Positions 3,603 to 41,880 of a stretch of DNA of 64,000 nt are shown here, in pieces. The DNA is taken from NCBI RefSeq assembly GCF_024502345.1, contig NZ_JALDNN010000001.1; one strand, written 5' to 3'. Position numbers and translations under genes: made by a program. Source of the stretch: Escherichia coli (lineage in GTDB: Bacteria > Pseudomonadota > Gammaproteobacteria > Enterobacterales > Enterobacteriaceae). The notes beneath the pieces were generated by a model, which worked only from the letters and a program-made list of their open reading frames with translations, was not told the DNA's origin and did no database searches. The number at the start of each line of letters is the position of its first letter. Position 1 is the first letter of the stretch.

Positions 3603-3963
3603 CTAATATCAAAGGGATTATAACGATATGGCACGAGTTAACCTGTTGACATTCAGGTGTTTTAAAAGTAGCAGCTCATGGTGTGTTATCCAGTAAGATG
3701 GAGAAAATTAACTGTCAGTCCGCACGCTATAACCAGATTGTTCAGCTAAGAAAGAAAACCAGAGTTGCTAATCAAAGGGCGAACACAACGGCATGTTTAT
3801 GTTTATTTATATAGTTAGTTTTATAGATAAAATTGAAATTATAAATATAAATAATGAATTAGCAGAAGCATCAACAGTAATATCTTATTCTCTGGTCGAT
3901 TTATGTAAAACCGACCAGTATTATCGATAAATTATCGTCTGACTTATTTTGCTTCGATAAAGC

Positions 3964-4439: not shown

Positions 4440-6350
4440 GTGACGGACGATTTTGCACCAGACGGTCAGCTGGCGAAAGCGATACCAGGCTTTAAGCCGC
4501 GAGAACCACAGCGACAGATGGCGGTAGCCGTCACCCAGGCGATAGAAAAAGGCCAGCCGCTGGTGGTGGAAGCAGGAACCGGTACGGGCAAAACCTACGC
4601 TTACCTGGCTCCTGCGCTGCGGGCGAAAAAGAAAGTCATTATCTCGACCGGCTCAAAAGCGTTGCAGGATCAGCTCTACAGCCGCGATTTGCCAACAGTC
4701 TCAAAGGCATTGAAATATACGGGCAACGTGGCGCTGCTGAAAGGGCGCTCAAACTACCTCTGCCTCGAGCGTCTCGAACAGCAGGCGCTGGCGGGGGGCG
4801 ATCTGCCGGTACAAATCTTAAGTGATGTGATCCTGCTGCGCTCCTGGTCTAATCAAACAGTCGATGGTGATATCAGCACCTGCGTCAGCGTGGCGGAAGA
4901 TTCACAGGCGTGGCCGCTGGTCACCAGCACCAACGACAACTGTCTTGGCAGCGACTGCCCGATGTATAAAGATTGCTTTGTGGTCAAAGCACGTAAAAAA
5001 GCGATGGACGCCGATGTGGTGGTGGTAAACCATCATCTCTTTCTGGCGGATATGGTGGTTAAAGAGAGTGGATTTGGCGAGTTGATCCCGGAAGCGGACG
5101 TCATGATCTTCGACGAAGCCCACCAGCTACCGGACATTGCCAGCCAGTATTTTGGTCAGTCACTCTCCAGTCGACAACTGCTCGACCTGGCAAAAGACAT
5201 CACCATCGCCTACCGCACCGAATTAAAAGACACCCAGCAGTTACAAAAGTGCGCTGATCGTCTTGCCCAGAGTGCGCAGGATTTTCGTCTGCAACTCGGT
5301 GAGCCAGGTTATCGCGGTAACCTGCGTGAGCTGTTAGCTAATCCGCAAATTCAGCGGGCATTTTTACTGCTCGATGACACCCTGGAACTTTGTTATGACG
5401 TGGCGAAACTGTCACTGGGGCGTTCCGCCTTGCTGGATGCGGCATTTGAGCGCGCCACGTTGTATCGCACACGGCTGAAGCGGCTAAAAGAGATCAATCA
5501 GCCGGGCTACAGCTACTGGTACGAATGCACTTCGCGCCATTTTACTCTGGCTCTCACGCCGCTCAGCGTGGCGGATAAATTCAAAGAGTTAATGGCGCAA
5601 AAGCCCGGTAGCTGGATCTTCACCTCAGCAACGCTGTCGGTGAACGACGATCTGCATCATTTCACCTCGCGGCTTGGGATAGAACAGGCGGAGTCGTTGC
5701 TATTGCCAAGCCCGTTTGATTACAGCCGCCAGGCGTTACTCTGTGTGCCGCGCAACCTGCCGCAAACCAATCAACCGGGTTCCGCGCGGCAACTGGCGGC
5801 TATGCTGCGCCCGATCATCGAAGCTAACAACGGTCGCTGTTTTATGCTTTGTACCTCGCACGCCATGATGCGCGATCTGGCCGAGCAGTTCCGCGCTACC
5901 ATGACGCTTCCCGTATTATTGCAGGGGGAAACCAGCAAAGGGCAACTGTTGCAGCAATTTGTCAGTGCCGGTAACGCGCTTCTTGTGGCAACCAGCAGTT
6001 TCTGGGAAGGGGTGGACGTGCGTGGCGATACGCTGTCATTGGTGATTATCGACAAATTGCCGTTTACCTCTCCTGATGATCCACTGTTAAAAGCGCGCAT
6101 GGAAGATTGCCATTTGCGCGGTGGCGACCCGTTCGATGAAGTACAACTGCCGGATGCGGTGATTACTCTCAAGCAGGGGGTAGGGCGACTGATTCGCGAC
6201 GCCGATGATCGCGGCGTGCTGGTGATTTGCGATAATCGGCTGGTGATGCGCCCTTACGGTGCGACGTTTCTCGCCAGTCTGCCGCCCGCGCCGCGCACCC
6301 GTGACATTGCCCGTGCGGTTCGTTTCCTTGCGATACCATCCTCCAGGTAA
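4440..6350 (+). CDS. yoaA: ATP-dependent DNA helicase, DinG/Rad3 family
   Basis: 636-aa ORF, GTG start after GGGGG; Walker A (AGTGTGKT), DEAH box (FDEAHQL). Confidence 0.9.
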   Translation: MTDDFAPDGQLAKAIPGFKPREPQRQMAVAVTQAIEKGQPLVVEAGTGTGKTYAYLAPALRAKKKVIISTGSKALQDQLYSRDLPTVSKALKYTGNVALLKGRSNYLCLERLEQQALAGGDLPVQILSDVILLRSWSNQTVDGDISTCVSVAEDSQAWPLVTSTNDNCLGSDCPMYKDCFVVKARKKAMDADVVVVNHHLFLADMVVKESGFGELIPEADVMIFDEAHQLPDIASQYFGQSLSSRQLLDLAKDITIAYRTELKDTQQLQKCADRLAQSAQDFRLQLGEPGYRGNLRELLANPQIQRAFLLLDDTLELCYDVAKLSLGRSALLDAAFERATLYRTRLKRLKEINQPGYSYWYECTSRHFTLALTPLSVADKFKELMAQKPGSWIFTSATLSVNDDLHHFTSRLGIEQAESLLLPSPFDYSRQALLCVPRNLPQTNQPGSARQLAAMLRPIIEANNGRCFMLCTSHAMMRDLAEQFRATMTLPVLLQGETSKGQLLQQFVSAGNALLVATSSFWEGVDVRGDTLSLVIIDKLPFTSPDDPLLKARMEDCHLRGGDPFDEVQLPDAVITLKQGVGRLIRDADDRGVLVICDNRLVMRPYGATFLASLPPAPRTRDIARAVRFLAIPSSR

Positions 6351-6407
6351 TTTGTTACGGAGTATGGTATGATGCGCGCCTTTTTATTGATCTAAGCACG
6401 AAGACCC

Positions 6408-7103
6408 ATGCGAATTCTGGCTATCGATACCGCGACAGAGGCCTGCTCTGTCGCCCTGTGGAACGACGGTACTGTCAACGCTCATTTTGAGCTTTGCCCT
6501 CGTGAACATACTCAACGAATCTTACCGATGGTGCAGGATATCCTGACCACCAGCGGAACTTCCCTGACTGATATTAACGCTCTGGCTTACGGGCGCGGCC
6601 CCGGTAGCTTTACCGGCGTGCGCATTGGTATTGGCATCGCGCAAGGGCTGGCGCTTGGCGCGGAATTACCGATGATTGGCGTCTCCACGCTAATGACGAT
6701 GGCGCAAGGGGCGTGGCGCAAAAACGGCGCAACACGCGTGCTGTCAGCCATTGACGCGCGAATGGGCGAAGTTTACTGGGCCGAATATCAGCGTGATGAA
6801 AACGGTATCTGGCACGGTGAAGAAACCGAAGCTGTACTCAAACCCGAACTCGTTCATGAACGAATGCAACAGCTTTCCGGCGAATGGGTGACGGTAGGGA
6901 CGGGCTGGCAAGCCTGGCCGGATCTCGGTGAAGAGAGCGAGCTGGTTTTGCGCGATGGCGAAGTGTTACTCCCCGCTGCAGAAGATATGCTGCCGATTGC
7001 TTGTCAGATGTTTGCCGAGGGTAAAACGGTGGCGGTGGAACATGCCGAACCGGTTTATTTACGTAACAACGTCGCATGGAAGAAACTTCCGGGCAAAGAA
7101 TGA
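6408..7103 (+). CDS. tsaB: tRNA t6A37 threonylcarbamoyladenosine biosynthesis protein
   Basis: 231-aa [20 protein letters not shown]... Confidence 0.92.
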
Positions 7104-7142
7104 ATCTTAAGAGTATGCCCTGAGAAAAAAAGGAGTCGCATC

Positions 7143-7724
7143 ATGGCGGTTCAAAAGAATGTTATCAAAGGCATACTGGCAGGTACGTTTGCGCTAATGC
7201 TGAGCGGTTGTGTCACTGTGCCGGACGCCATTAAAGGCAGCAGTCCCACGCCGCAACAAGATTTAGTTCGGGTGATGAGTGCGCCGCAGCTGTACGTTGG
7301 TCAGGAGGCACGCTTTGGTGGCAAAGTGGTTGCGGTACAAAACCAGCAAGGGAAAACCCGCCTGGAAATTGCTACCGTACCGCTGGACAGCGGAGCCAGA
7401 CCGACGCTGGGAGAACCTTCTCGCGGTCGCATTTATGCCGATGTGAACGGTTTTCTGGACCCGGTGGATTTCCGTGGACAACTGGTTACGGTAGTCGGGC
7501 CAATCACTGGTGCGGTTGACGGCAAAATCGGCAATACGCCCTATAAATTTATGGTGATGCAAGTAACGGGTTACAAACGTTGGCATTTAACCCAGCAGGT
7601 GATTATGCCGCCTCAGCCGATTGATCCATGGTTTTATGGCGGTCGTGGCTGGCCCTATGGCTACGGCGGATGGGGCTGGTATAATCCCGGCCCCGCGAGA
7701 GTACAAACAGTTGTAACTGAATAA
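7143..7724 (+). CDS. yeaY: Slp-family outer membrane lipoprotein
   Basis: 193-aa ORF with lipobox LSGC. Confidence 0.85.
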
Positions 7725-7752
7725 TTGCTTGTTTTTAAAGAAAAAGAAACAG

Positions 7753-7770
7753 CGGCTGGTCCGCTGTTTC
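7753..7770 (+). promoter_or_regulatory. putative FadR operator (distal) within hairpin downstream of yeaY
   Basis: gctggtccgctgtttc resembles FadR consensus ANCTGGTCNGACNTGTT; also forms stem gaaacagcgg/ccgctgtttc. Confidence 0.4.
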
Positions 7771-7839
7771 TGCATTCTTACGGTAAAGATAAAAATAAAT
7801 AGTGACGCGCTTCGCAACCTTTTCGTTGGGTAATTATCA

Positions 7840-7856
7840 AGCTGGTATGATGAGTT
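7840..7856 (+). promoter_or_regulatory. putative FadR operator (proximal) in fadD promoter
   Basis: agctggtatgatgagtt, about 75 bp upstream of fadD start. Confidence 0.45.
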
Positions 7857-7928
7857 AATATTATGTTAACGGCATGTATATCATTTGGGGTTGCGATGAC
7901 GACGAACACGCATTTTAGAGGTGAAGAA

Positions 7929-9614
7929 TTGAAGAAGGTTTGGCTTAACCGTTATCCCGCGGACGTTCCGACGGAGATCAACCCTGACCGTTATCAATCT
8001 CTGGTAGATATGTTTGAGCAGTCGGTCGCGCGCTACGCCGATCAGCCTGCGTTTGTGAATATGGGGGAGGTGATGACCTTCCGCAAGCTGGAAGAACGCA
8101 GTCGCGCGTTTGCCGCTTATTTGCAACAAGGGTTGGGGCTGAAGAAAGGCGATCGCGTTGCGTTGATGATGCCTAATTTATTGCAATATCCGGTGGCGCT
8201 GTTTGGCATTTTGCGTGCCGGGATGATCGTCGTAAACGTTAACCCGTTGTATACCCCGCGTGAGCTTGAGCATCAGCTTAACGATAGCGGCGCATCGGCG
8301 ATTGTTATCGTGTCTAACTTTGCTCACACACTGGAAAAAGTGGTTGATAAAACCGCCGTTCAGCACGTAATTCTGACCCGTATGGGCGATCAGCTATCTA
8401 CGGCAAAAGGCACGGTAGTCAATTTCGTTGTTAAATACATCAAGCGTTTGGTGCCGAAATACCATCTGCCAGATGCCATTTCATTTCGTAGCGCACTGCA
8501 TAACGGCTACCGGATGCAGTACGTCAAACCCGAACTGGTGCCGGAAGATTTAGCCTTCCTGCAATACACCGGCGGCACCACAGGTGTGGCGAAAGGCGCG
8601 ATGCTGACTCACCGCAATATGCTGGCGAACCTGGAACAGGTCAACGCCACCTATGGGCCGTTGCTGCATCCAGGTAAAGAACTGGTAGTAACGGCACTGC
8701 CGCTGTATCACATTTTTGCCCTGACCATTAACTGCCTGCTGTTTATCGAACTGGGTGGGCAGAACCTGCTTATCACTAACCCGCGCGATATTCCAGGGTT
8801 GGTAAAAGAGTTAGCGAAATATCCGTTTACCGCTATCACTGGCGTTAACACCTTGTTCAATGCGTTGCTGAACAATAAAGAGTTCCAGCAGCTGGATTTC
8901 TCCAGTCTGCATCTTTCCGCAGGCGGTGGGATGCCAGTGCAGCAAGTGGTGGCAGAGCGTTGGGTGAAACTAACAGGACAGTATCTGCTGGAAGGCTATG
9001 GCCTTACCGAGTGTGCGCCGCTGGTCAGCGTTAACCCATATGATATTGATTATCATAGTGGTAGCATCGGTTTGCCGGTGCCGTCGACGGAAGCCAAACT
9101 GGTGGATGATGATGATAATGAAGTACCACCGGGTCAACCGGGTGAGCTTTGTGTCAAAGGACCGCAGGTGATGCTGGGTTACTGGCAGCGTCCCGATGCT
9201 ACAGATGAGATCATCAAAAATGGCTGGTTACACACCGGCGACATCGCGGTAATGGACGAAGAAGGTTTCTTACGCATCGTCGATCGCAAAAAAGACATGA
9301 TTCTGGTTTCCGGTTTTAACGTCTATCCAAACGAGATTGAAGATGTCGTCATGCAGCATCCTGGCGTACAGGAAGTCGCGGCTGTTGGCGTACCTTCCGG
9401 CTCCAGTGGTGAAGCGGTAAAAATCTTTGTAGTGAAAAAAGATCCATCGCTTACCGAAGAGTCACTGGTGACTTTTTGCCGCCGTCAGCTCACGGGCTAC
9501 AAAGTACCGAAGCTGGTGGAGTTTCGTGATGAGTTACCGAAATCTAACGTCGGAAAAATTTTGCGACGAGAATTACGTGACGAAGCGCGCGGCAAAGTGG
9601 ACAATAAAGCCTGA
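7929..9614 (+). CDS. fadD: long-chain fatty acid CoA ligase
   Basis: 561 aa from TTG at 7929 ([14 protein letters not shown]...); AMP-binding motif [11 protein letters not shown]; ORF-track start at 7863 is a 22-codon upstream extension. Confidence 0.92.
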
Positions 9615-9633
9615 GCGTTAAGTCAGTCGTCAG

Positions 9634-9659
9634 ACGCCGGTTAATCCGGCGTTTTTTTT
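9634..9659 (+). terminator. rho-independent terminator of fadD
   Basis: acgccggttaatccggcgt stem-loop followed by T8. Confidence 0.8.
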
Positions 9660-9683
9660 GACGCCCACTAAAGAGAATACAAT

Positions 9684-10811
9684 TTGAATTACCAAATGAT
9701 TACCACGGACGATGCGCTGGCTTCTTTGTGTGAAGCCGTCCGTGCCTTTCCGGCGATAGCCCTGGATACTGAATTTGTTCGTACGCGCACTTATTACCCG
9801 CAGCTGGGGTTGATTCAACTTTTCGATGGCGAGCATCTGGCGCTAATTGATCCGCTCGGGATCACTGACTGGTCACCGCTGAAAGCGATCCTGCGCGATC
9901 CGTCCATCACAAAATTTCTCCATGCAGGCAGTGAAGATCTGGAAGTGTTCCTCAATGTCTTTGGCGAATTACCACAACCCCTGATTGACACGCAAATCCT
10001 TGCTGCCTTCTGCGGACGCCCGATGTCATGGGGTTTCGCTTCCATGGTGGAAGAGTATTCCGGCGTTACGCTGGACAAGAGTGAATCGCGCACCGACTGG
10101 CTGGCCAGACCGCTGACCGAACGTCAGTGTGAATATGCAGCGGCGGATGTCTGGTATCTGTTACCGATCACCGCCAAGCTTATGGTAGAAACGGAGGCCT
10201 CCGGCTGGCTACCAGCGGCGCTGGATGAATGTCGCCTGATGCAAATGCGTCGTCAGGAAGTCGTTGCGCCGGAAGATGCCTGGCGTGATATCACCAATGC
10301 CTGGCAATTACGCACACGCCAACTGGCCTGTCTGCAACTGTTAGCCGACTGGCGACTGCGCAAGGCGCGAGAGCGCGATCTGGCGGTGAACTTTGTCGTG
10401 CGTGAAGAGCATTTGTGGTCGGTAGCGCGTTATATGCCGGGAAGTTTAGGCGAACTGGACAGCCTGGGTTTATCCGGTAGCGAAATCCGCTTTCACGGTA
10501 AAACGCTACTGGCGCTGGTGGAAAAAGCGCAGACATTGCCGGAAGATGCCTTACCGCAGCCGATGCTTAACCTGATGGACATGCCGGGTTATCGTAAAGC
10601 GTTTAAAGCGATTAAGTCGCTGATTACTGACGTGAGCGAAACGCATAATATCAGCGCCGAATTGCTGGCATCGCGTCGGCAAATCAACCAACTGCTGAAC
10701 TGGCACTGGAAACTGAAACCGCAGAACAATTTGCCGGAGCTGATTTCCGGCTGGCGTGGTGAGCTGATGGCGGAAGCATTACACAATTTATTGCAGGAAT
10801 ATCCGCAGTAA
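9684..10811 (+). CDS. rnd: ribonuclease D
   Basis: 375-aa ORF from TTG start (MNYQMITTDDALASLCEA...); DEDDy 3-prime-5-prime exonuclease and HRDC family. Confidence 0.92.
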   Translation: MNYQMITTDDALASLCEAVRAFPAIALDTEFVRTRTYYPQLGLIQLFDGEHLALIDPLGITDWSPLKAILRDPSITKFLHAGSEDLEVFLNVFGELPQPLIDTQILAAFCGRPMSWGFASMVEEYSGVTLDKSESRTDWLARPLTERQCEYAAADVWYLLPITAKLMVETEASGWLPAALDECRLMQMRRQEVVAPEDAWRDITNAWQLRTRQLACLQLLADWRLRKARERDLAVNFVVREEHLWSVARYMPGSLGELDSLGLSGSEIRFHGKTLLALVEKAQTLPEDALPQPMLNLMDMPGYRKAFKAIKSLITDVSETHNISAELLASRRQINQLLNWHWKLKPQNNLPELISGWRGELMAEALHNLLQEYPQ

Positions 10812-10817
10812 AATCTT

Positions 10818-10860
10818 CCGAAGCCGGACTGGGCGCGCTCAACGCCACATCCGGCTTCGG
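10818..10860. repeat. inverted repeat between convergent rnd and yeaX, possible bidirectional terminator
   Basis: ccgaagccgga ... tccggcttcgg, 11-bp arms, no T-run. Confidence 0.4.
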
Positions 10861-10864
10861 CAAA

Positions 10865-11830
10865 CTACAAATCCAACACCAGGCGTTTACCCTTCGCACG
10901 CGAACAACAGATCAACATACTTTGCTGGCTGGCACGCTCTTCATCGCTAAAATACTGATCCCGATGGTCAGCTTCACCTTCCAGTATTGCCGTTTCGCAG
11001 GTTCCGCATACCCCTTCACGACATAAACATTCCACTTTCGCGGCTTTATTATTTTCAATAACCTGCAAAATAGTCATCTCTTCCGGCACCACAAACTCTT
11101 TTCCGGAACGGGCAAGCACCAGGGTAAATGCATCGCCGGTTTTGTCTTCGATAGCAAATTGCTCAAAGTGCAGCGTATCGGCGGCGATGTCCAGACGCGT
11201 AGCTTCACTTCTTACCGCTTCAATTAGCGCCTCGGGGCCACAGGTATAAACGTGTGTGCCAGGTTCGATATCCGCCAATAATCGCGCTAATTCCAGTCGT
11301 GTTCCGGTTGATGAATGATGCAAATGGACTTTCTCAGCCTGCGGATGCTGGACTAGCTCATCACGAAATGCGCAACTTTCTGGATTTCGCGAGCAGTAAT
11401 GTAGCTGCCAGTCGACGTCGCTGTGTTGCAACTCTGCCATGTGCGACAGGAAAGGGGTGATACCAATACCGCCCGCGATAAACAGATGCTTTCTGGCTGA
11501 GGGAATTAGCGCAAACAGGTTATTAGGCGTTGAGATCGTTAACCGATCGCCCACTTTTACCTGCTGATGCAAAAAGCGGGAACCGCCGCGCGAGTTTTCT
11601 TCCAGTCGAACGGCAATCTGATAATGAGTTGTATCGAGAGGCGAACTCAGCAGTGAATACGCATTGCTGTACTGGTTATCACCATCGCTCATCTGCACAA
11701 TGACGTGACTTCCTCCAGTAAACGCAGGTAATGGTTTGCCATCGGTTGCCACCAGCGTGAAGCGTTTCACCTGTTCGGTAAGGGGTTCCACCTGACTCAC
11801 CTGTACTTCAAACATTTGATAGTCTGACAT
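10865..11830 (-). CDS. yeaX: carnitine monooxygenase reductase subunit (ferredoxin-NAD(P) reductase with 2Fe-2S domain)
   Basis: 321-aa ORF; C-terminal CxxGxCxxC ferredoxin motif (CREGVCGTC). Confidence 0.88.
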   Translation of the reverse strand: MSDYQMFEVQVSQVEPLTEQVKRFTLVATDGKPLPAFTGGSHVIVQMSDGDNQYSNAYSLLSSPLDTTHYQIAVRLEENSRGGSRFLHQQVKVGDRLTISTPNNLFALIPSARKHLFIAGGIGITPFLSHMAELQHSDVDWQLHYCSRNPESCAFRDELVQHPQAEKVHLHHSSTGTRLELARLLADIEPGTHVYTCGPEALIEAVRSEATRLDIAADTLHFEQFAIEDKTGDAFTLVLARSGKEFVVPEEMTILQVIENNKAAKVECLCREGVCGTCETAILEGEADHRDQYFSDEERASQQSMLICCSRAKGKRLVLDL

Positions 11831-11885
11831 TGCTGTACTCCATCAAAAATCAGCCCAGCGGCGGAAAATACCGCCGCCGATGTCA

Positions 11886-12095
11886 TTAGTCCTTAAATAC
11901 CTGCGCCAGCAGATTATGGAAATGGGCGATACCATGTTCGGAAATGCCGCTACCGCTACTGTCGGCCATGATGCGCCCCTGACCACGATAGCCACGCGAT
12001 TTCAGCCCTTTCTGTACGCTTTCAACCAGACGTAAATCTTCCGGACGGAACACATCGCGATACCACTCAATCAGCGATTTTTGCTCGTCGGTTAA
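11886..12095 (-). pseudogene. yeaW: 3-prime remnant of carnitine monooxygenase oxygenase subunit; N-terminal Rieske and catalytic domains absent
   Basis: 73-aa ORF ends 56 bp upstream of yeaX and its 5-prime end overlaps the dmlR start region; tail LTDEQKSLIEWYRDVFRPEDLRLVESVQKGLKSRGYRGQGRIMADSSGSGISEHGIAHFHNLLAQVFKD matches my recollection of the YeaW C-terminus. Confidence 0.6.
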
Positions 12096-12119
12096 CTGGT
12101 GAAACATAAAACACGAATC

Positions 12120-13043
12120 ATGAATAATTTACCGCTGCTGAATGATTTGCGCGTCTTTATGCTGGTGGCTCGCCGGGCTGGTTTTGCCGCCGTGGCGGAA
12201 GAACTGGGCGTTTCACCGGCGTTCGTCAGCAAGCGCATCGCCTTGCTGGAGCAAACGCTAAACGTGGTGTTGTTACACCGCACCACCCGCCGCGTCACCA
12301 TTACCGAAGAAGGAGAGCGGATTTATGAATGGGCGCAGCGGATTTTGCAGGATGTCGGTCAGATGATGGACGAACTTTCTGACGTGCGTCAGGTGCCACA
12401 GGGGATGCTGCGTATTATCAGCAGCTTTGGTTTTGGACGACAGGTGGTGGCTCCGGCGTTATCAGCGCTGGCGAAGGCGTATCCGCAACTGGAATTACGT
12501 TTTGATGTGGAAGACCGGCTGGTCGATTTGGTCAATGAAGGTGTCGATCTCGATATTCGCATTGGCGATGACATTGCCCCTAATTTAATCGCCCGCAAAC
12601 TGGCGACCAATTACCGCATTCTCTGCGCGTCGCCGGAATTTATTGCGCAACATGGCGCGCCGAAACATTTAACCGATCTTTCTGCATTGCCGTGCCTGGT
12701 CATTAAAGAGCGCGATCATCCTTTTGGTGTCTGGCAATTACGCAATAAAGAAGGCCACCATGCGATTAAAGTCACCGGCCCACTGTCGTCTAATCATGGA
12801 GAAATTGTCCATCAGTGGTGTCTCGATGGGCAGGGGATTGCTCTGCGTTCCTGGTGGGATGTTAGCGAAAACATTGCCAGTGGTCATTTAGTGCAAGTGC
12901 TACCGGAATATTACCAGCCAGCGAACGTCTGGGCCGTTTATGTTTCAAGGCTGGCGACGTCAGCGAAAGTGCGGATAACGGTAGAATTTTTACGCCAGTA
13001 TTTTGCCGAGCACTACCCGAATTTTTCACTGGAACATGCCTGA
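12120..13043 (+). CDS. dmlR: LysR-type transcriptional regulator (D-malate regulon)
   Basis: 307 aa from ATG at 12120 (MNNLPLLNDLRVFMLVARRAGFAAVAEELGVSPAFVSKR...). Confidence 0.85.
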   Translation: MNNLPLLNDLRVFMLVARRAGFAAVAEELGVSPAFVSKRIALLEQTLNVVLLHRTTRRVTITEEGERIYEWAQRILQDVGQMMDELSDVRQVPQGMLRIISSFGFGRQVVAPALSALAKAYPQLELRFDVEDRLVDLVNEGVDLDIRIGDDIAPNLIARKLATNYRILCASPEFIAQHGAPKHLTDLSALPCLVIKERDHPFGVWQLRNKEGHHAIKVTGPLSSNHGEIVHQWCLDGQGIALRSWWDVSENIASGHLVQVLPEYYQPANVWAVYVSRLATSAKVRITVEFLRQYFAEHYPNFSLEHA

Positions 13044-13100
13044 TTCATGATTCAATTATCGGGTTGATATCAGATTAAAACCTGATTTTCACCTTTCTAA

Positions 13101-13808
<708 letters not shown>

Positions 13809-13891
13809 TGCTTTCAGCCCGCGTTGTCGCGGGCTTCCCATCTATAATCCTCCCTGATTCTTCTCTGATATGGTGCTAAAAAGTAACCAAT

Positions 13892-13913
13892 AAATGGTAT
13901 TTAAAATGCAAAT
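13892..13913 (+). promoter_or_regulatory. putative NsrR operator in yeaR promoter
   Basis: aaatggtatttaaaatgcaaatt resembles NsrR consensus AANATGCATTTNAAATGCATNTT. Confidence 0.4.
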
Positions 13914-13980
13914 TATCAGGCGTACCCTGAAACGGCTGGAATAAACCGTTTTCAGCGCATTCACCGAAGGAGGGAAAAGG

Positions 13981-14340
13981 ATGCTGCAAATCCCACAGAA
14001 TTATATTCATACGCGCTCAACACCTTTCTGGAATAAACAAACTGCGCCTGCCGGAATATTCGAACGTCATCTTGATAAAGGAACGCGCCCGGGGGTTTAC
14101 CCACGCCTTTCCGTTATGCATGGGGCGGTCAAATATCTCGGCTACGCTGATGAACACAGTGCAGAGCCTGATCAGGTGATCCTTATCGAAGCGGGGCAGT
14201 TTGCGGTGTTCCCTCCAGAAAAGTGGCACAACATTGAAGCCATGACTGACGATACTTATTTCAACATTGACTTCTTCGTGGCTCCTGAAGTCCTGATGGA
14301 AGGTGCGCAACAACGGAAAGTCATTCATAACGGGAAATGA
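13981..14340 (+). CDS. yeaR: DUF1971 protein
   Basis: 119-aa ORF. Confidence 0.85.
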   Translation: MLQIPQNYIHTRSTPFWNKQTAPAGIFERHLDKGTRPGVYPRLSVMHGAVKYLGYADEHSAEPDQVILIEAGQFAVFPPEKWHNIEAMTDDTYFNIDFFVAPEVLMEGAQQRKVIHNGK

Positions 14341-14343
14341 ATC

Positions 14344-14526
14344 ATGGGTAAAGCAACGTATACCGTGACCGTCACCAATAACAGCAATGGCGTTTCTGTC
14401 GATTATGAAACAGAGACGCCGATGACTTTGCTGGTGCCAGAAGTGGCGGCTGAAGTGATAAAAGATCTGGTGAATACCGTGCGTTCTTATGACACGGAAA
14501 ACGAACATGATGTTTGTGGTTGGTAA
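14344..14526 (+). CDS. yoaG: DUF1869 small protein, 60 aa
   Basis: ORF 3 bp downstream of yeaR, implying co-transcription. Confidence 0.8.
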   Translation: MGKATYTVTVTNNSNGVSVDYETETPMTLLVPEVAAEVIKDLVNTVRSYDTENEHDVCGW

Positions 14527-14673
14527 TTATCACTGATCGTTGATGGCGTAATTTCTGCGCCATCGCAAAAAAATCCTCCGTGATGCTCGTCACAAATCTT
14601 GCCCTCCCGATGTTGTGCTATGCTTTTTATCAGCGACTAACCCGCTAATGCAAAACAGATAAGTGAGGAAACA

Positions 14674-14922
14674 ATGGGCATTCTGTCATGGATTATTTTT
14701 GGGCTTATTGCCGGTATTCTGGCGAAGTGGATCATGCCAGGTAAAGATGGTGGTGGATTCTTTATGACTATCCTGCTGGGGATAGTCGGTGCCGTAGTCG
14801 GCGGTTGGATCAGCACGCTGTTTGGCTTTGGTAAAGTCGATGGCTTCAATTTTGGCAGCTTCGTGGTTGCCGTTATTGGTGCGATTGTCGTGCTATTTAT
14901 CTACAGGAAGATTAAAAGTTAA
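14674..14922 (+). CDS. yeaQ: GlsB/YeaQ/YmgE family small membrane protein
   Basis: 82-aa glycine-rich hydrophobic ORF. Confidence 0.88.
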   Translation: MGILSWIIFGLIAGILAKWIMPGKDGGGFFMTILLGIVGAVVGGWISTLFGFGKVDGFNFGSFVVAVIGAIVVLFIYRKIKS

Positions 14923-14935
14923 CGCTTAAATTGCA

Positions 14936-14970
14936 CAAAGGCTGCACACAGGCAGCCTTTGCTATTTTTT
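14936..14970 (+). terminator. rho-independent terminator after yeaQ
   Basis: caaaggctgc / gcagcctttg stem followed by T-run. Confidence 0.7.
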
Positions 14971-14980
14971 AGAGGTGACG

Positions 14981-15055
14981 TTACCACCATCCCAGCTCAG
15001 TGCCGAGTACGACAATAATCGCCACACCCATCATAATAATCGTTGTTTTTTTCAT
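14981..15055 (-). CDS. yoaJ: 24-aa small membrane protein
   Basis: Read by eye: MKKTTIIMMGVAIIVVLGTELGWW; GGAG 7 nt upstream of ATG. Confidence 0.7.
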   Translation of the reverse strand: MKKTTIIMMGVAIIVVLGTELGWW

Positions 15056-15057
15056 CT

Positions 15058-15156
15058 TTATGCTCCCGGGGCAGCATAGCCGCCAATAAAAAACCATGCT
15101 AAAAATACGACCGCTGTAATGAAGATTACAACCGGAAAAATAATACCGATTCGCAT
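15058..15156 (-). CDS. yoaK: 32-aa small membrane protein
   Basis: Read by eye: MRIGIIFPVVIFITAVVFLAWFFIGGYAAPGA; immediately downstream of dgcP. Confidence 0.65.
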   Translation of the reverse strand: MRIGIIFPVVIFITAVVFLAWFFIGGYAAPGA

Positions 15157-15188
15157 GTTATCACCAATCAAAAGGATGTGAATACGCC

Positions 15189-16214
15189 TCAGGAATGTAG
15201 CGCTGGATGCGCGACAAAAGGTGTTTTCTGTTTGTGTTTTTTCTCCTGATACATCGCGATATCGGCAGCATGCAGGGCACTGTCTGCATCGGTCGTTTCA
15301 GGATCGACTTCTACTATGCCAAGACTGGCACCGGGATAATACAAATCAACATCACCTAAGTGATATTCTCCACGTATTTGCTGTTGAATACGTTCTCGCA
15401 GCGACGAAATATCCGCATTCTCGTTGTTTAGTGAAACAACCAAAAACTCATCACCACCGAGACGACCAATAACTTCGCCATTTTGCTGGAGCGTATTAAG
15501 GCGCTCGCCAACCTGAATGAGAAACAGATCGCCACTATTATGACCAAAACGATCATTGATTAATTTGAAGTTATCCAGATCGATAAACGCGATCATTATC
15601 TTATGGTTAAGATGCCGGGCGAGGGAAAACAGTGTTGTCAGATTTTCAAAAATCGCCCGCCGATTCGGTAGCCCGGTTAACGAGTCGGTATACGATTGCG
15701 CAATCAGCGCGGCATTGGCTTCGCGCAGCTGTTCAACCAACGCCTCTTTTTGAATATATTGTGCAATCAGTCCGGCGAATAACTGTAAAACCTGTTCCGC
15801 GCGTTCACTCCACTGGCGCTTCTCACTGCTGGCGGCGCAAAGCGTGCCATAGAATGATCCATCCGGTAAGTGAATTGGCGTGCTCAGAAATGTGGTGATG
15901 CCAAGATTGCGTGCCGCAATACAGTCGCCCCAACGGTCAGGGACTTCATCGCTGAAAAAGCAGTTTTCATCAATGGCGCGTTTGCATAACGAGTAATCCC
16001 ACGAGACGGTAAAATTCTCCGGGATGTGCATTTTCTGGCTGTTACGGGCAAACATAATATGCTGCAGGCGCGCTTCGACATCCACTTTGGTCAGGTAGGT
16101 TGATTCCATATCAGTGACCATTTCCAGCATCTCCAGAAGCTGTCGGACCAGACTTTCCAGTGACTGTTCTTTGGCAAGGGATTGCGAGACGCGGGCGATA
16201 ATCTGATCTGACAC
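15189..16214 (-). CDS. dgcP: diguanylate cyclase, GAF-GGDEF
   Basis: 341 aa from GTG at 16214 (GGAG upstream); intact GGDEF at 15445..15459. Confidence 0.88.
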   Translation of the reverse strand: MSDQIIARVSQSLAKEQSLESLVRQLLEMLEMVTDMESTYLTKVDVEARLQHIMFARNSQKMHIPENFTVSWDYSLCKRAIDENCFFSDEVPDRWGDCIAARNLGITTFLSTPIHLPDGSFYGTLCAASSEKRQWSERAEQVLQLFAGLIAQYIQKEALVEQLREANAALIAQSYTDSLTGLPNRRAIFENLTTLFSLARHLNHKIMIAFIDLDNFKLINDRFGHNSGDLFLIQVGERLNTLQQNGEVIGRLGGDEFLVVSLNNENADISSLRERIQQQIRGEYHLGDVDLYYPGASLGIVEVDPETTDADSALHAADIAMYQEKKHKQKTPFVAHPALHS

Positions 16215-16396
16215 GAAACAACTCCAGGATACGGCGGGTAAATGCTGATTATTTAATCTTTGCAGGCATGATAAAACATCACCAACAAAGATGAAACAAG
16301 ACGTAATATGTTTTGAGTGAATGTAATAAAAATAGTGCTGCAAAACAAAACGATACCGCGATACTCTAAGCGTAGATAAATGAGTGAGATCAATAA

Positions 16397-16651
16397 ATGA
16401 AAATTATCAGTTTTGCTTTGCCTTGCTTGCTGGTCCTGGCTGGTTGTTCAACCTCTTCTCAGCCAGAAGCACCTAAACCGCCGCAGATTGGTATGGCAAA
16501 TCCGGCGTCGGTCTATTGCCAGCAGAAGGGCGGGACGCTCATTCCAGTGTCGACAGCGCAAGGGGTCAGCAACAATTGCAAATTACCGGGCGGTGAAACG
16601 ATTGATGAATGGGCATTGTGGCGACGGGACCATCCGGCTGGTGAAAAATAA
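16397..16651 (+). CDS. yoaF: DUF333 lipoprotein
   Basis: 84-aa ORF with lipobox LAGC. Confidence 0.8.
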   Translation: MKIISFALPCLLVLAGCSTSSQPEAPKPPQIGMANPASVYCQQKGGTLIPVSTAQGVSNNCKLPGGETIDEWALWRRDHPAGEK

Positions 16652-16672
16652 CCGCCGGATGCTGTACTAAAA

Positions 16673-17020
16673 TCACAAGCTACGTAGCCAGTCGGCCAGC
16701 ACCAGCGCATGGTTCTGCGTGGTGTTTTTTGCTGCGTAGAGCAGGGTCAGCGGCTGTTTTTTGGCGATGTCCGCCAGCCGCTTTCCTTCTTGCTCGTGTT
16801 GCGCCAGTTCTGCAAGATATTGCTCGCGAAAGGTTGCAAAATCGACGACTTCGCCGTGAAAGGCTTTGCGCAGTTCCGTTGACGGCGTGATTTCTTTATC
16901 CCACTCATCAAGGGCTAAATCGGTTTTTTTGATACCGCGCGGCCAGAGGCGGTCGACCAGTAGGCGATAACCATCGCTCTGTTCAGCCGGATCATAAACG
17001 CGTTTGCACTGAATATTCAT
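16673..17020 (-). CDS. yeaO: DUF488 protein
   Basis: 115 aa from internal ATG (MNIQCKRVYDP...). Confidence 0.85.
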   Translation of the reverse strand: MNIQCKRVYDPAEQSDGYRLLVDRLWPRGIKKTDLALDEWDKEITPSTELRKAFHGEVVDFATFREQYLAELAQHEQEGKRLADIAKKQPLTLLYAAKNTTQNHALVLADWLRSL

Positions 17021-17074
17021 CGTGTTTGTTCTCCCTTTCACGCATGATTTGTCACGTCACTATAGCACCGGATA

Positions 17075-18256
17075 TTAGCGAATTTCTTTGTCTCTCCCGG
17101 CGCAAAGTCCGAAAATCGCCATCAGTAGTGAAAGTATTGCAACACCCATCAGTGGTACGGACCAGTCACCGTTAGCATCGTGTATTTTACCCATCAGCGG
17201 CGGCCCACAGGCTGCCAGCAAATACCCGACGGATTGTGCCATCCCCGAGAGTGCCGCCGCCTGATGCGCAGAACTTGCCCGAAGACCAATGAACGTCAAC
17301 CCCAGTATCATTGTTGCGCCGGAACCAAAACCGAAAAGCAGAGTCCAGGTGATCGCGTGCGCTGGCATAAAGCAGAGCCCAACAGCGCCCACTGCGCACA
17401 TCAAGGCAACGAACGCTGCAATACCACGCTGATCTTTCACATGATGTAAGAAAAGAGGGATCAGCAAACCGGGAGCTGCTGTGGCTAGTTGCAGCAAACC
17501 ATGCAGTGAACCCGCCTGTGCTTCGCTATAGCCGTGACTGATGAGGATCGCCGGAAGCCAGCCAATAATCACGTAATAGACCAGTGAGTTGATCCCAAGA
17601 AACAATGTGACCTGCCAGGCAAGCGGCGAACGCCAGATACCCCGAGTATGTAAGGCGCGCGAGGTACTCAAATTTGCATGTTGTTGGCTTCGCCACTGTG
17701 GCAGCCATAAAAAAAGAGACAGCAGAGGAAAACACATCAGCATGAACAACGCGCCTTGCCAGCCAAAACCGTTCAAAGCCAGCGGCACGACCATAGCCGA
17801 TCCCAGTGCCGCTGCAGCTCCCATTGTCAGGGAATATGCGCCGGTAAGTCTGGCGACGGAATGAGGGAAATCGCGTTTAATTAATCCTGGCAGTAAGACA
17901 TTGCCTAATGCAATCCCACCGCCAATGACCGCTGTACCGCCAAATAATAAGTAAGGCGAAGGGAGAGAACGAATTGCGATACCTGCACAGATCAAAAGTA
18001 ACGCGGCAAACAGGCTACGTTCCATACCAAAACGTCGCGCCACCGGGGCAGCCAAAGGTGAGATTAGCGCAAAGGCCAATAATGGCAGGGTGGTTAATAA
18101 GCCGGTTTGCGCTGTCGTCAGCGAGTAAGCGGAACGAATCGTATCCAGTAACGGCGCTGCGCCGGTAAAGGTGACGCGTAATGTTGTGGCAATCATCAGA
18201 ATGCCAGCGATAAGGACAATCCTGTTTTTGCCGCTTAATGAAGTTGAACAGGTCAT
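17075..18256 (-). CDS. yeaN: MFS transporter
   Basis: 393-aa multi-TM ORF. Confidence 0.88.
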   Translation of the reverse strand: MTCSTSLSGKNRIVLIAGILMIATTLRVTFTGAAPLLDTIRSAYSLTTAQTGLLTTLPLLAFALISPLAAPVARRFGMERSLFAALLLICAGIAIRSLPSPYLLFGGTAVIGGGIALGNVLLPGLIKRDFPHSVARLTGAYSLTMGAAAALGSAMVVPLALNGFGWQGALFMLMCFPLLSLFLWLPQWRSQQHANLSTSRALHTRGIWRSPLAWQVTLFLGINSLVYYVIIGWLPAILISHGYSEAQAGSLHGLLQLATAAPGLLIPLFLHHVKDQRGIAAFVALMCAVGAVGLCFMPAHAITWTLLFGFGSGATMILGLTFIGLRASSAHQAAALSGMAQSVGYLLAACGPPLMGKIHDANGDWSVPLMGVAILSLLMAIFGLCAGRDKEIR

Positions 18257-40047: not shown

Positions 40048-41036
40048 ATGAAAAAAGTTTTATTACAAAACCATCCTGGGAGCGAGAAGTATTCTTTTAA
40101 TGGCTGGGAAATATTTAATAGTAATTTTGAACGGATGATTAAAGAAAATAAGGCCATGCTGCTTTGTAAGTGGGGGGGGGGTATTTAACATGTGTTGTCG
40201 CTGTAATGTTTGTATTCGCAGCGATAACATCCAACGGTTTGAATGAAAGAGGCCTGATTACCGCGGGATGCTCATTTCTTTATCTATTAATTATGATGGG
40301 GCTTATTGTTCGGGCCGGTTTTAAAGCAAAAAAAGAACAGCTGCATTATTATCAGGCTAAAGGTATTGAGCCGCTCAGTATCGAGAAATTACAGGCGCTA
40401 CAATTGATCACACCTTATCGATTCTATCATAAGCAATGGTCTGAAACGCTGGAGTTCTGGCCGCGAAAGCCTGAACCTGGCAAAGATACCTTCCAATATC
40501 ATGTGCTTCCTTTTTACTCGATCGATATCATAAGTAAAAGACGCGAGTCTTTAGAGGATCAATGGGGTATCGAAGATAGCGAAAGTTATTGTGCCTTAAT
40601 GGAGCATTTTCTTTCTGGCGACCATGGAGCCAATACCTTTAAAGCAAACATGGAGGAAGCCCCAGAGCAGGTTATCGCCTTGTTGAATAAATTTGCTGTT
40701 TTTCCCTCTGACTATATCTCTGATTGCGCTAATCATAGCTCCGGTAAATCCTCGGCGAAGCTAATATGGGCGGCGGAATTATCATGGATGACCTCGATAT
40801 CAAGCACAGCTTTTCAAAACGGGACAATTGAAGAAGAACTGGCCTGGCATTATATAATGCTTGCTTCTCGAAAGGCGCACGAGTTGTTCGAAAGCGAAGA
40901 AGATTATCAAAAAAATAGTCTAATGGGATTTCTTTACTGGCATATCTGCTGCTATCGCAGAAAGTTAACGGATGCTGAACTTGAAGCGTGTTATCGTTAC
41001 GACAAGCAGTTTTGGGTGATGCTGCCAACTTACTGA
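40048..41036 (+). pseudogene. ynjI: DUF1266 inner membrane protein gene, disrupted twice (poly-G frameshift and IS1 insertion near 3-prime end)
   Basis: Frame from ATG 40048 (MKKVLLQNHPGSEKYS...CKW) stops at 40188; downstream ORF 40170..41036 is in a different frame; the two join in-frame if the G10 run were G8 or G11; last 6 codons lie inside the IS1 inverted repeat. Confidence 0.75.
40172..40181 (+). repeat. G10 homopolymer tract inside ynjI
   Basis: Ten consecutive G read directly at 40172..40181. Confidence 0.95.
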
Positions 41037-41069
41037 TTTAGTGTATGATGGTGTTTTTGAGGTGCTCCA

Positions 41070-41345
41070 GTGGCTTCTGTTTCTATCAGCTGTCCCTCCT
41101 GTTCAGCTACTGACGGGGTGGTGCGTAACGGCAAAAGCACCGCCGGACATCAGCGCTATCTCTGCTCTCACTGCCGTAAAACATGGCAACTGCAGTTCAC
41201 TTACACCGCTTCTCAACCCGGTACGCACCAGAAAATCATTGATATGGCCATGAATGGCGTTGGATGCCGGGCAACCGCCCGAATTATGGGCGTTGGCCTC
41301 AACACGATTTTCCGCCATTTAAAAAACTCAGGCCGCAGTCGGTAA
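41070..41345 (+). CDS. insA: IS1 InsA
   Basis: 91-aa [46 protein letters not shown]... Confidence 0.93.
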
Positions 41346-41767
41346 CCTCGCGCATACAGCCGGGCAGTGACGTCATCGTCTGCGCGGAAATGGACGAACA
41401 GTGGGGATACGTCGGGGCTAAATCGCGCCAGCGCTGGCTGTTTTACGCGTATGACAGGCTCCGGAAGACGGTTGTTGCGCACGTATTCGGTGAACGCACT
41501 ATGGCGACGCTGGGGCGTCTTATGAGCCTGCTGTCACCCTTTGACGTGGTGATATGGATGACGGATGGCTGGCCGCTGTATGAATCCCGCCTGAAGGGAA
41601 AGCTGCACGTAATCAGCAAGCGATATACGCAGCGAATTGAGCGGCATAACCTGAATCTGAGGCAGCACCTGGCACGGCTGGGACGGAAGTCGCTGTCGTT
41701 CTCAAAATCGGTGGAGCTGCATGACAAAGTCATCGGGCATTATCTGAACATAAAACACTATCAATAA
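41264..41767 (+). CDS. insB: IS1 insB frame; expressed as InsAB' transposase by -1 frameshift from insA
   Basis: 167-aa ORF in -1 frame relative to insA. Confidence 0.88.
41321..41327 (+). promoter_or_regulatory. A6C programmed -1 ribosomal frameshift motif of IS1
   Basis: AAAAAAC at insA/insB frame overlap; insA reads LKNSGRSR*, -1 frame reads KKLRPQSV... Confidence 0.8.
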
Positions 41768-41880
41768 GTTGGAGTCATTACCCAGTTTTGGGAGCACTAC
41801 AGTAAGAAATGCCGTTGGCCCATAAGAAATGTTCCCTGGGGAGCATCATCCGTTAAATACTCATAAACGCCTGAAATTTT

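Follow-up and report, generated by a model that had tools for sequence, protein, structure and literature searches.

A probable microhomology-mediated deletion of dmlA, yeaV and most of yeaW between yeaX and dmlR in Escherichia coli

Gene content of the locus between rnd and leuE

The window analyzed here is a stretch of 64,000 nucleotides of Escherichia coli DNA (assembly GCF_024502345.1, contig NZ_JALDNN010000001.1), to which all window positions refer. Its gene order matches that of annotated E. coli chromosomes, with yoaA, tsaB, yeaY, fadD and rnd on one side of the locus of interest and leuE, yeaR, yoaG and yeaQ on the other. The locus lies between rnd and leuE, i.e., where the intact dmlR-dmlA-yeaV-yeaW-yeaX locus is found. 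Three intact loci served as references: that of strain Res13-Sevr-PER07-33 (L001), that of K-12 (L002) and that of a near-identical relative (L036).

On the minus strand, yeaX (10865..11830), encoding the reductase subunit of carnitine monooxygenase, is an intact ORF of 321 aa, but its oxygenase partner is gone. On the plus strand, dmlR (12120..13043), encoding the LysR-type regulator of dmlA, is an intact ORF of 307 aa. The starts of the two genes are 289 bp apart; the first-pass annotation, made from the window sequence alone, had given 290 bp, and the elements that it had placed there were all found as described. The gap holds a 3' remnant of yeaW on the minus strand (11886..12097), which is a pseudogene fragment of 212 of 1,125 nt. 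It lies within a chimeric ORF of 73 aa on the same strand (11886..12107). The deletion junction is marked by a lone remaining TAACT, a 5-bp microhomology (12093..12097), and is followed by the surviving part of the dmlR leader on the plus strand (12098..12119; 22 nt, or 27 nt if the microhomology is included). Structured RNA was searched for in 10500-13500 and yielded no Rfam match at E values up to 0.1.

A consensus scan also revealed a G+C-rich, terminator-like hairpin followed by a T-run on the minus strand (11855..11880; 10 pairs, 8 of them G-C; tail GCTGATTTTT). It is located between the yeaW stop and the yeaX start in a region that is 100% identical in the intact locus L001, and it can be regarded as native to the locus and not as made by the deletion. 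A strong hairpin at this position suggests attenuated or separate expression of yeaX.

The 73-aa ORF is a remnant of the oxygenase gene yeaW

Residues 5-73 of the chimeric ORF correspond to residues 306-374 of the 374-aa YeaW of L001, with 69 of 69 residues identical, and are followed by the YeaW stop codon. The first-pass annotation had recognized about 68 residues of the YeaW C-terminus in this ORF and had named a failure to align with it as an observation that would speak against its reading; the exact alignment settles this point. The four remaining codons (residues 1-4, MFHQ) are derived from the junction and represent a reverse complement reading of the dmlR leader. At the nucleotide level, the remnant is 100% identical to yeaW of L001 as far as window position 12097. 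The ORF also aligned with the extreme C-terminus of the CntA oxygenase crystal structure (6y9c, residues 323-389 of 391; E = 1.6e-29).

In E. coli YeaW, the Rieske [2Fe-2S] cluster is liganded by Cys89, His91, Cys109 and His112, while His211, His216 and Asp325 hold the catalytic mononuclear iron and Glu208 forms a bridge between subunits (PMC9508527). All of these residues were verified in the reference protein sequence. The four Rieske ligands fall within the deleted part of yeaW, as do E208, H211 and H216; D325, corresponding to ORF residue 24, is the only one kept. The Rieske and catalytic domains are thus missing, as had been proposed from the sequence at first sight. Since the YeaW ligands are lost except for Asp325, the ORF cannot act as an oxygenase and is what is left of a gene. 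Homology to YeaW/CntA is present, but both the Rieske ligands and a complete set of iron ligands are absent, and homology without the catalytic parts marks a gene remnant and not a functional member of the group V Rieske oxygenases.

No Shine-Dalgarno-like sequence was present in the 30 nt upstream of the 73-aa ORF, and the consensus scan detected no promoter-like site upstream of it on the minus strand. A search of NCBIfam with the ORF returned no match. The chimeric ORF is probably not expressed and would represent an untranslated or non-functional leftover.

The junction carries a 5-bp microhomology

When window positions 11600-12400 were compared by megablast with 5,426 complete E. coli genomes, the query split at 12093-12097 into a left piece comprising yeaX and the yeaW 3' end and a right piece comprising the dmlR 5' region. 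Base-by-base comparison with L001, L002 and L036 showed that the left homology stops at 12097 and the right homology begins at 12093. The motif TAACT is present at both breakpoints in all three intact loci, while the window has one copy. The aligned loci therefore place the breakpoints, for which the first-pass annotation had suggested such an alignment and a range of 12090..12119, within these five positions. The 28-mer spanning the junction is CTCGTCGGTTAACTGGTGAAACATAAAA.

Alignment with L001, L002 and L036 confirmed that dmlA, yeaV and most of yeaW are absent from the window. The missing DNA amounts to 3,971 bp in comparison with L001 and L036 and to 3,746 bp in comparison with K-12; the discrepancy arises since 225 bp at the 5' end of yeaV are missing from K-12 itself. 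The loss as such had been noticed before, but the size then given, roughly 3.5 kb, was too small with respect to the closest intact relatives. Of the 1,125 nt of yeaW, the deletion took 913 from the 5' end (81%). The remaining tail directly adjoins the dmlR leader, and 22-27 nt separate it from the dmlR start codon.

Neither inserted bases nor an IS end nor any other mobile-element sequence was found at the junction, and all of 11600-12400 aligned to native flanks. In a locus-specific null model of 200,000 random deletions of 2-6 kb within the intact locus, a microhomology of at least 5 bp was obtained in 0.55% of the simulated deletions (P = 0.0055). The junction thus has the features of a microhomology-mediated deletion, namely a short direct repeat of which one copy is left and no filler or recombinase-site DNA. 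Spontaneous RecA-independent deletions between short repeats are classical in lacI of E. coli. The deletion described here resembles them in its short direct repeat at both ends, the single copy kept, its kilobase scale and its freedom from mobile-element sequence. Nothing distinguishes it from the usual microhomology deletions; its 5-bp repeat is at the short end of the range usually reported.

We consider it very probable (about 0.88) that a single illegitimate recombination event between two TAACT copies, spontaneous and recent, removed the 3,971 bp. The first copy would have been located inside yeaW, 212 nt from its 3' end, and the second upstream of dmlR, 27 nt before its start codon. Slippage during replication or a template switch would be the likely route, and neither RecA nor a mobile element would have been required.

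Intact relatives indicate a recent event within an intact clone

In the public collection, 122 blocks contain the exact YeaX protein of the window, and on every long contig inspected its gene is adjoined by yeaW and yeaV at full length (374 and 536 aa, respectively). Three intact clone-mates (L036, L038 and L033) carry the full segment, and over 17 kb only 3-5 SNPs separate them from the window. In detail, L036 (GCA_032324195.1) differs by 5 SNPs in 11,233 bp to the left and by none in 5,767 bp to the right, L038 by 3 SNPs in 11,233 bp, and L033 by 4 plus 1 SNPs.

The window differed in all clone-mate comparisons at positions 3713, 6112 and 6833, and these alleles are private to its sub-lineage. 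The alleles at 6112 and 6833 are also present in L003, an isolate assembly bearing the same junction that does not cover 3713, and 6833T is also present in the junction-bearing contigs L004 and L005 and in the intact contig L037. The combination of private SNPs with intact, near-identical relatives indicates that the deletion arose within an otherwise intact clone. Judged by these sequence comparisons, the deletion is derived and recent.

Frequency of the allele and other lesions of the locus

Not one of the 5,426 complete E. coli genomes contains the junction, and at least 80% of the yeaW-yeaV-dmlA segment is present in 4,368 of them (80.5%). It had been conceded from the start that the deletion reading would fail if the compact arrangement were common in E. 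coli, and this is not so. That the compact state is ancestral or common was ruled out by its absence from these genomes, by the truncated gene at the junction and by the intact clone-mates.

Some 1,045 complete genomes (about 19%), among them those of ST131 and clone D i14, carry a different and larger reduction of the locus. In clone D i14 (L011 2613-3154), rnd is followed by a 156-nt scrap of dmlA, a 168-nt fragment of the dmlR 3' end and leuE. With about 93% identity between the dmlA scrap and the intact gene, the sequence suggests that this reduced allele is an old pseudogene remnant fixed in a large lineage. As in this reduced locus, the window has lost the genes of carnitine monooxygenase and D-malate dehydrogenase at this site. 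The breakpoints of the reduced allele are different, however, and yeaX, yeaW and yeaV are wholly gone from it, whereas the allele of the window keeps yeaX and dmlR intact and appears recent.

Two further lesions involve IS1. In SL124 (L012 3632-4567; human stool, China), an IS1B copy between yeaX and dmlA replaces yeaW and yeaV. On a contig of the window's own clone (L039 1-122, same contig as L021; ENA ERZ27239021), which is 4 SNPs away from the window in 11.2 kb, an IS1 end abuts nt 396 (codon 132) of yeaW. In addition, L022 (Logan ERR1620298) begins at yeaW nt 395 and shows no differences from the window in 4.2 kb. From these contig sequences, yeaW::IS1 is taken as a second, independent inactivation of the oxygenase gene within the window's clone. 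In SL124 and the yeaW::IS1 clone-mates, as in the window, the same oxygenase gene of a commensal E. coli has been inactivated, but those alleles have IS1 at the lesion, whereas the junction in the window has none and shows the microhomology signature instead.

The proximity of these lesions raises the alternative that IS1 first entered yeaW and that a later deletion took IS1 together with neighbouring DNA. The IS1 at yeaW nt 396 in L039/L021 (and, by its contig end, in L022) lies inside the segment missing from the window, IS1 replaces yeaW and yeaV in SL124, and the window genome itself carries a copy of IS1 at 41015-41782. Classical IS1 adjacent deletions, however, retain the element at one end. 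No IS1 sequence exists at the junction or in its vicinity, IS1 ends occur in the window at 41015 and 41782 only, and both breakpoints are native and joined at a microhomology. Moreover, L039 is no closer to the window than the intact L038 is (4 versus 3 SNPs in 11.2 kb). An IS1-associated origin is therefore considered very improbable, and a spontaneous deletion between the TAACT copies remains our preferred explanation.

K-12 and many other genomes, forming the class covered to 95% in two pieces, lack 225 bp including the first ~129 nt of yeaV and upstream DNA. This difference was placed at about 9880-10080 of L002 versus 9880-10300 of L001 (yeaV 5' end and dmlA 3' flank). The RefSeq annotation lists K-12 yeaV as a partial pseudogene, and thus the arrangement used as 'reference' is itself partly decayed. 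To judge from these alleles, the locus is evidently dispensable and has decayed repeatedly and independently in E. coli. The deletion in the window is ordinary strain-level gene decay without new mechanistic content.

The same junction occurs on different flanking haplotypes

The exact 73-aa junction ORF was found on nine contigs of the public collection, one from NCBI and the rest from ENA metagenome assemblies. The NCBI record (L003; GCA_050022275.1) is the sole isolate assembly among them; it matches window positions 5886-18107 at 100% identity and probably represents the source genome or a clone-mate. An identical 56-nt junction was present in all eight loci retrieved (8/8), which had been made with different assemblers. 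One junction-bearing ENA metagenome is labelled human gut, and other ENA junction records have names that seem to resemble human cohort codes. An exact scan of JGI metagenome contigs with the 28-nt junction found none. An assembly artefact was ruled out since the junction is on nine contigs from different projects and assemblers. Likewise, an engineered knock-out scar was ruled out because the junction is purely native and occurs in ENA metagenome assemblies, including the one labelled human gut.

The flanks of the junction were not uniform. L004 carries K-12-type alleles at 11789, 11795, 11898, 11949 and 12518, L007 and L008 represent a third haplotype of yeaX (about 25 differences), and L010 is K-12-like across 11600-11651. 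Clusters of K-12-like SNPs in L004 and L005 recur in the intact contig L037. The mixed haplotypes differ from the window as near as 148 bp to the left and 301 bp to the right of the junction. A strictly clonal and very recent single event does not predict an identical junction on unlike flanks, and either later recombination or mixed-strain consensus in metagenome assemblies must therefore be invoked.

The pattern could reflect an older or mobile deletion, which arose once and then moved between lineages by homologous recombination, or which recurs at the same TAACT pair; loss of the carnitine and D-malate genes might then be favoured in the gut. This would account for the same junction on at least three flanking haplotypes and for the incongruence between the shared deletion and the SNPs held in common with intact contig L037. 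It would also fit the independent losses at the locus, i.e., the reduction in about 19% of the complete genomes and the IS1 insertions in SL124 and in clone-mates. However, the divergent haplotypes all come from short-read metagenome contigs and are possible mosaics of co-resident strains. The SPAdes-style contigs L005 and L010, obtained from different samples, both end at 12147, which equals 12093+54. A 55-mer that starts at 12093, the first base common to the paths of both alleles, ends at this position, and an assembly graph with k = 55 would break there if both alleles were present. We infer that the samples of L005 and L010 held the deleted and the intact alleles side by side. Furthermore, the one junction-bearing isolate assembly shows 100% identity to the window, the junction is absent from all 5,426 complete genomes, and L004 and L005 share the window-private allele 6833T. 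An older or mobile deletion is thus unlikely in our estimation. The further proposal that the same TAACT-to-TAACT deletion exists on several distinct E. coli gut backgrounds, recurring or spreading because the loss is advantageous in the human gut, appears slightly more doubtful still; if it were true, the junction would define a trackable 'TMA-null' allele of a gut commensal. We favour mosaic consensus from multi-strain samples as the source of the haplotype mix over recombination, spread or recurrence, in keeping with a single recent deletion.

It was also observed that window position 6294, between tsaB and yoaA, is the end of contig L005 as well as of the main alignment block in scaffold L004. 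This hints at a repeat or strain-variable point that breaks assemblies there.

dmlR has lost its upstream control region

The DmlR protein of the window differs from RefSeq DmlR of L001 by 1 aa and has the Pfam domains HTH_1 and LysR_substrate, as expected for a full-length orthologue. The exact protein was found in 78,042 blocks of the public collection and was encoded beside dmlA in 10 of the 10 places shown. In NCBIfam, DmlR matched just the paralogue TtdR, under the cutoff (358 versus 398 bits), and its name is therefore based on orthology and synteny.

Of the 102 bp between dmlA and dmlR in the intact locus, 75-80 are deleted, and the divergent dmlR-dmlA arrangement no longer exists in the window. 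The intact intergenic region has a perfect TATAAT at -57..-52 and TTGACA at -75..-70 relative to the dmlR ATG, and both are deleted here. Laboratory-evolved mutations have been reported at -50, in 'close proximity to -10 of dmlRp3', and at -35, in the 'dmlRp3 promoter region' (Guzman et al. 2019, PMC6452873, Table 1). The window retains DNA upstream of dmlR from -27 or -22 only, depending on which TAACT copy is counted. Since -50, -35 and the TATAAT all lie within the deleted DNA, dmlR is without its annotated promoter. This bears out the earlier suspicion that the native promoter had gone with the deleted segment: 22-27 nt of upstream DNA survive, and the dmlRp3 positions do not. The dmlR operator region is presumably lost as well.

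A fusion promoter serving dmlR or yeaX was sought at the junction by consensus scan and rejected, as none was found. The single promoter-like match on the plus strand (12099-12128) is also present in the intact loci and overlaps the dmlR start codon. The same scan detected no terminator-like site on the plus strand between rnd and dmlR, and therefore weak transcription of dmlR by read-through from rnd is possible. By the proposed course of events, dmlR would be left as a regulator without its target gene and without its native promoter.

yeaX is intact but the carnitine and D-malate functions are predicted to be lost

YeaX of the window differs from RefSeq YeaX of L001 by 1 aa. Its plant-type [2Fe-2S] cluster is liganded by Cys270, Cys275, Cys278 and Cys308 (PMC9508527), and all four cysteines are present in the 321-aa protein, as is characteristic of a YeaX/CntB reductase. 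A Pfam search with the identical YeaX protein gave DmmA-like_N/NAD_binding_1/Fer2.

The functions lost with the deleted genes are those of a D-malate/3-isopropylmalate/tartrate dehydrogenase (dmlA) and of a carnitine-type transporter of the BCCT family (yeaV), in addition to the oxygenase. In Acinetobacter baumannii, carnitine is cleaved to trimethylamine and malic semialdehyde, which is converted to D-malate and further to pyruvate by a D-malate dehydrogenase that the authors called a DmlA orthologue (PMC11353897). In the light of this pathway, the deleted genes together with yeaX and dmlR form one functional unit, the core of which is gone. The window still resembles the intact locus (K-12 b1799-b1803; CntA/CntB cluster of A. 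baumannii) in that yeaX and dmlR are full length and near-identical and the yeaW tail is identical to the reference. Unlike the intact K-12 locus, it is without dmlA, yeaV, YeaW residues 1-305 and most of the divergent control region.

Strains with this allele are accordingly predicted to form no trimethylamine from carnitine by the YeaW/YeaX-dependent route. DmlA-dependent growth on D-malate is likewise predicted to be absent. YeaX would be kept as a reductase without an oxygenase to reduce.

Relevance of the allele for trimethylamine prediction

Trimethylamine formed from carnitine has been linked to cardiovascular risk. The cntA sequences in human gut samples are considered to come mainly from E. 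coli YeaW/YeaX (CntA/CntB) (PMC5433236). How well 'E. coli abundance' predicts trimethylamine potential is thus influenced by whether individual strains possess the locus or not. The allele described here represents another route of loss besides the lineage-wide reduction and the IS1 lesions, and it offers a clean diagnostic junction sequence. Since yeaX is intact, screens based on cntB/yeaX alone would misclassify deletion strains as producers. Its practical value is that of a marker, as carriers keep yeaX/cntB and cannot make the oxygenase. The allele appears to be undescribed; no publication on the deletion turned up in literature searches, none of which was aimed specifically at it.

Mobile elements elsewhere in the window and in related contigs

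A complete IS1 of 768 bp is located at window positions 41015-41782, flanked by a 9-bp target duplication (CAGTTTTGG). It sits in the DUF1266 gene ynjI beside gdhA. The 3-kb stretch around it is covered to at least 80% in one place by 40 of the 5,426 complete genomes only. In L023, L028, L031 and L032 (about 5400-6924, downstream of yoaG), an IS200/IS605-type element is found where the window and K-12 have yeaQ. This element carries a Y1 transposase gene and/or an OrfB/TnpB-like gene, and the four contigs share the DmlR protein of the window.
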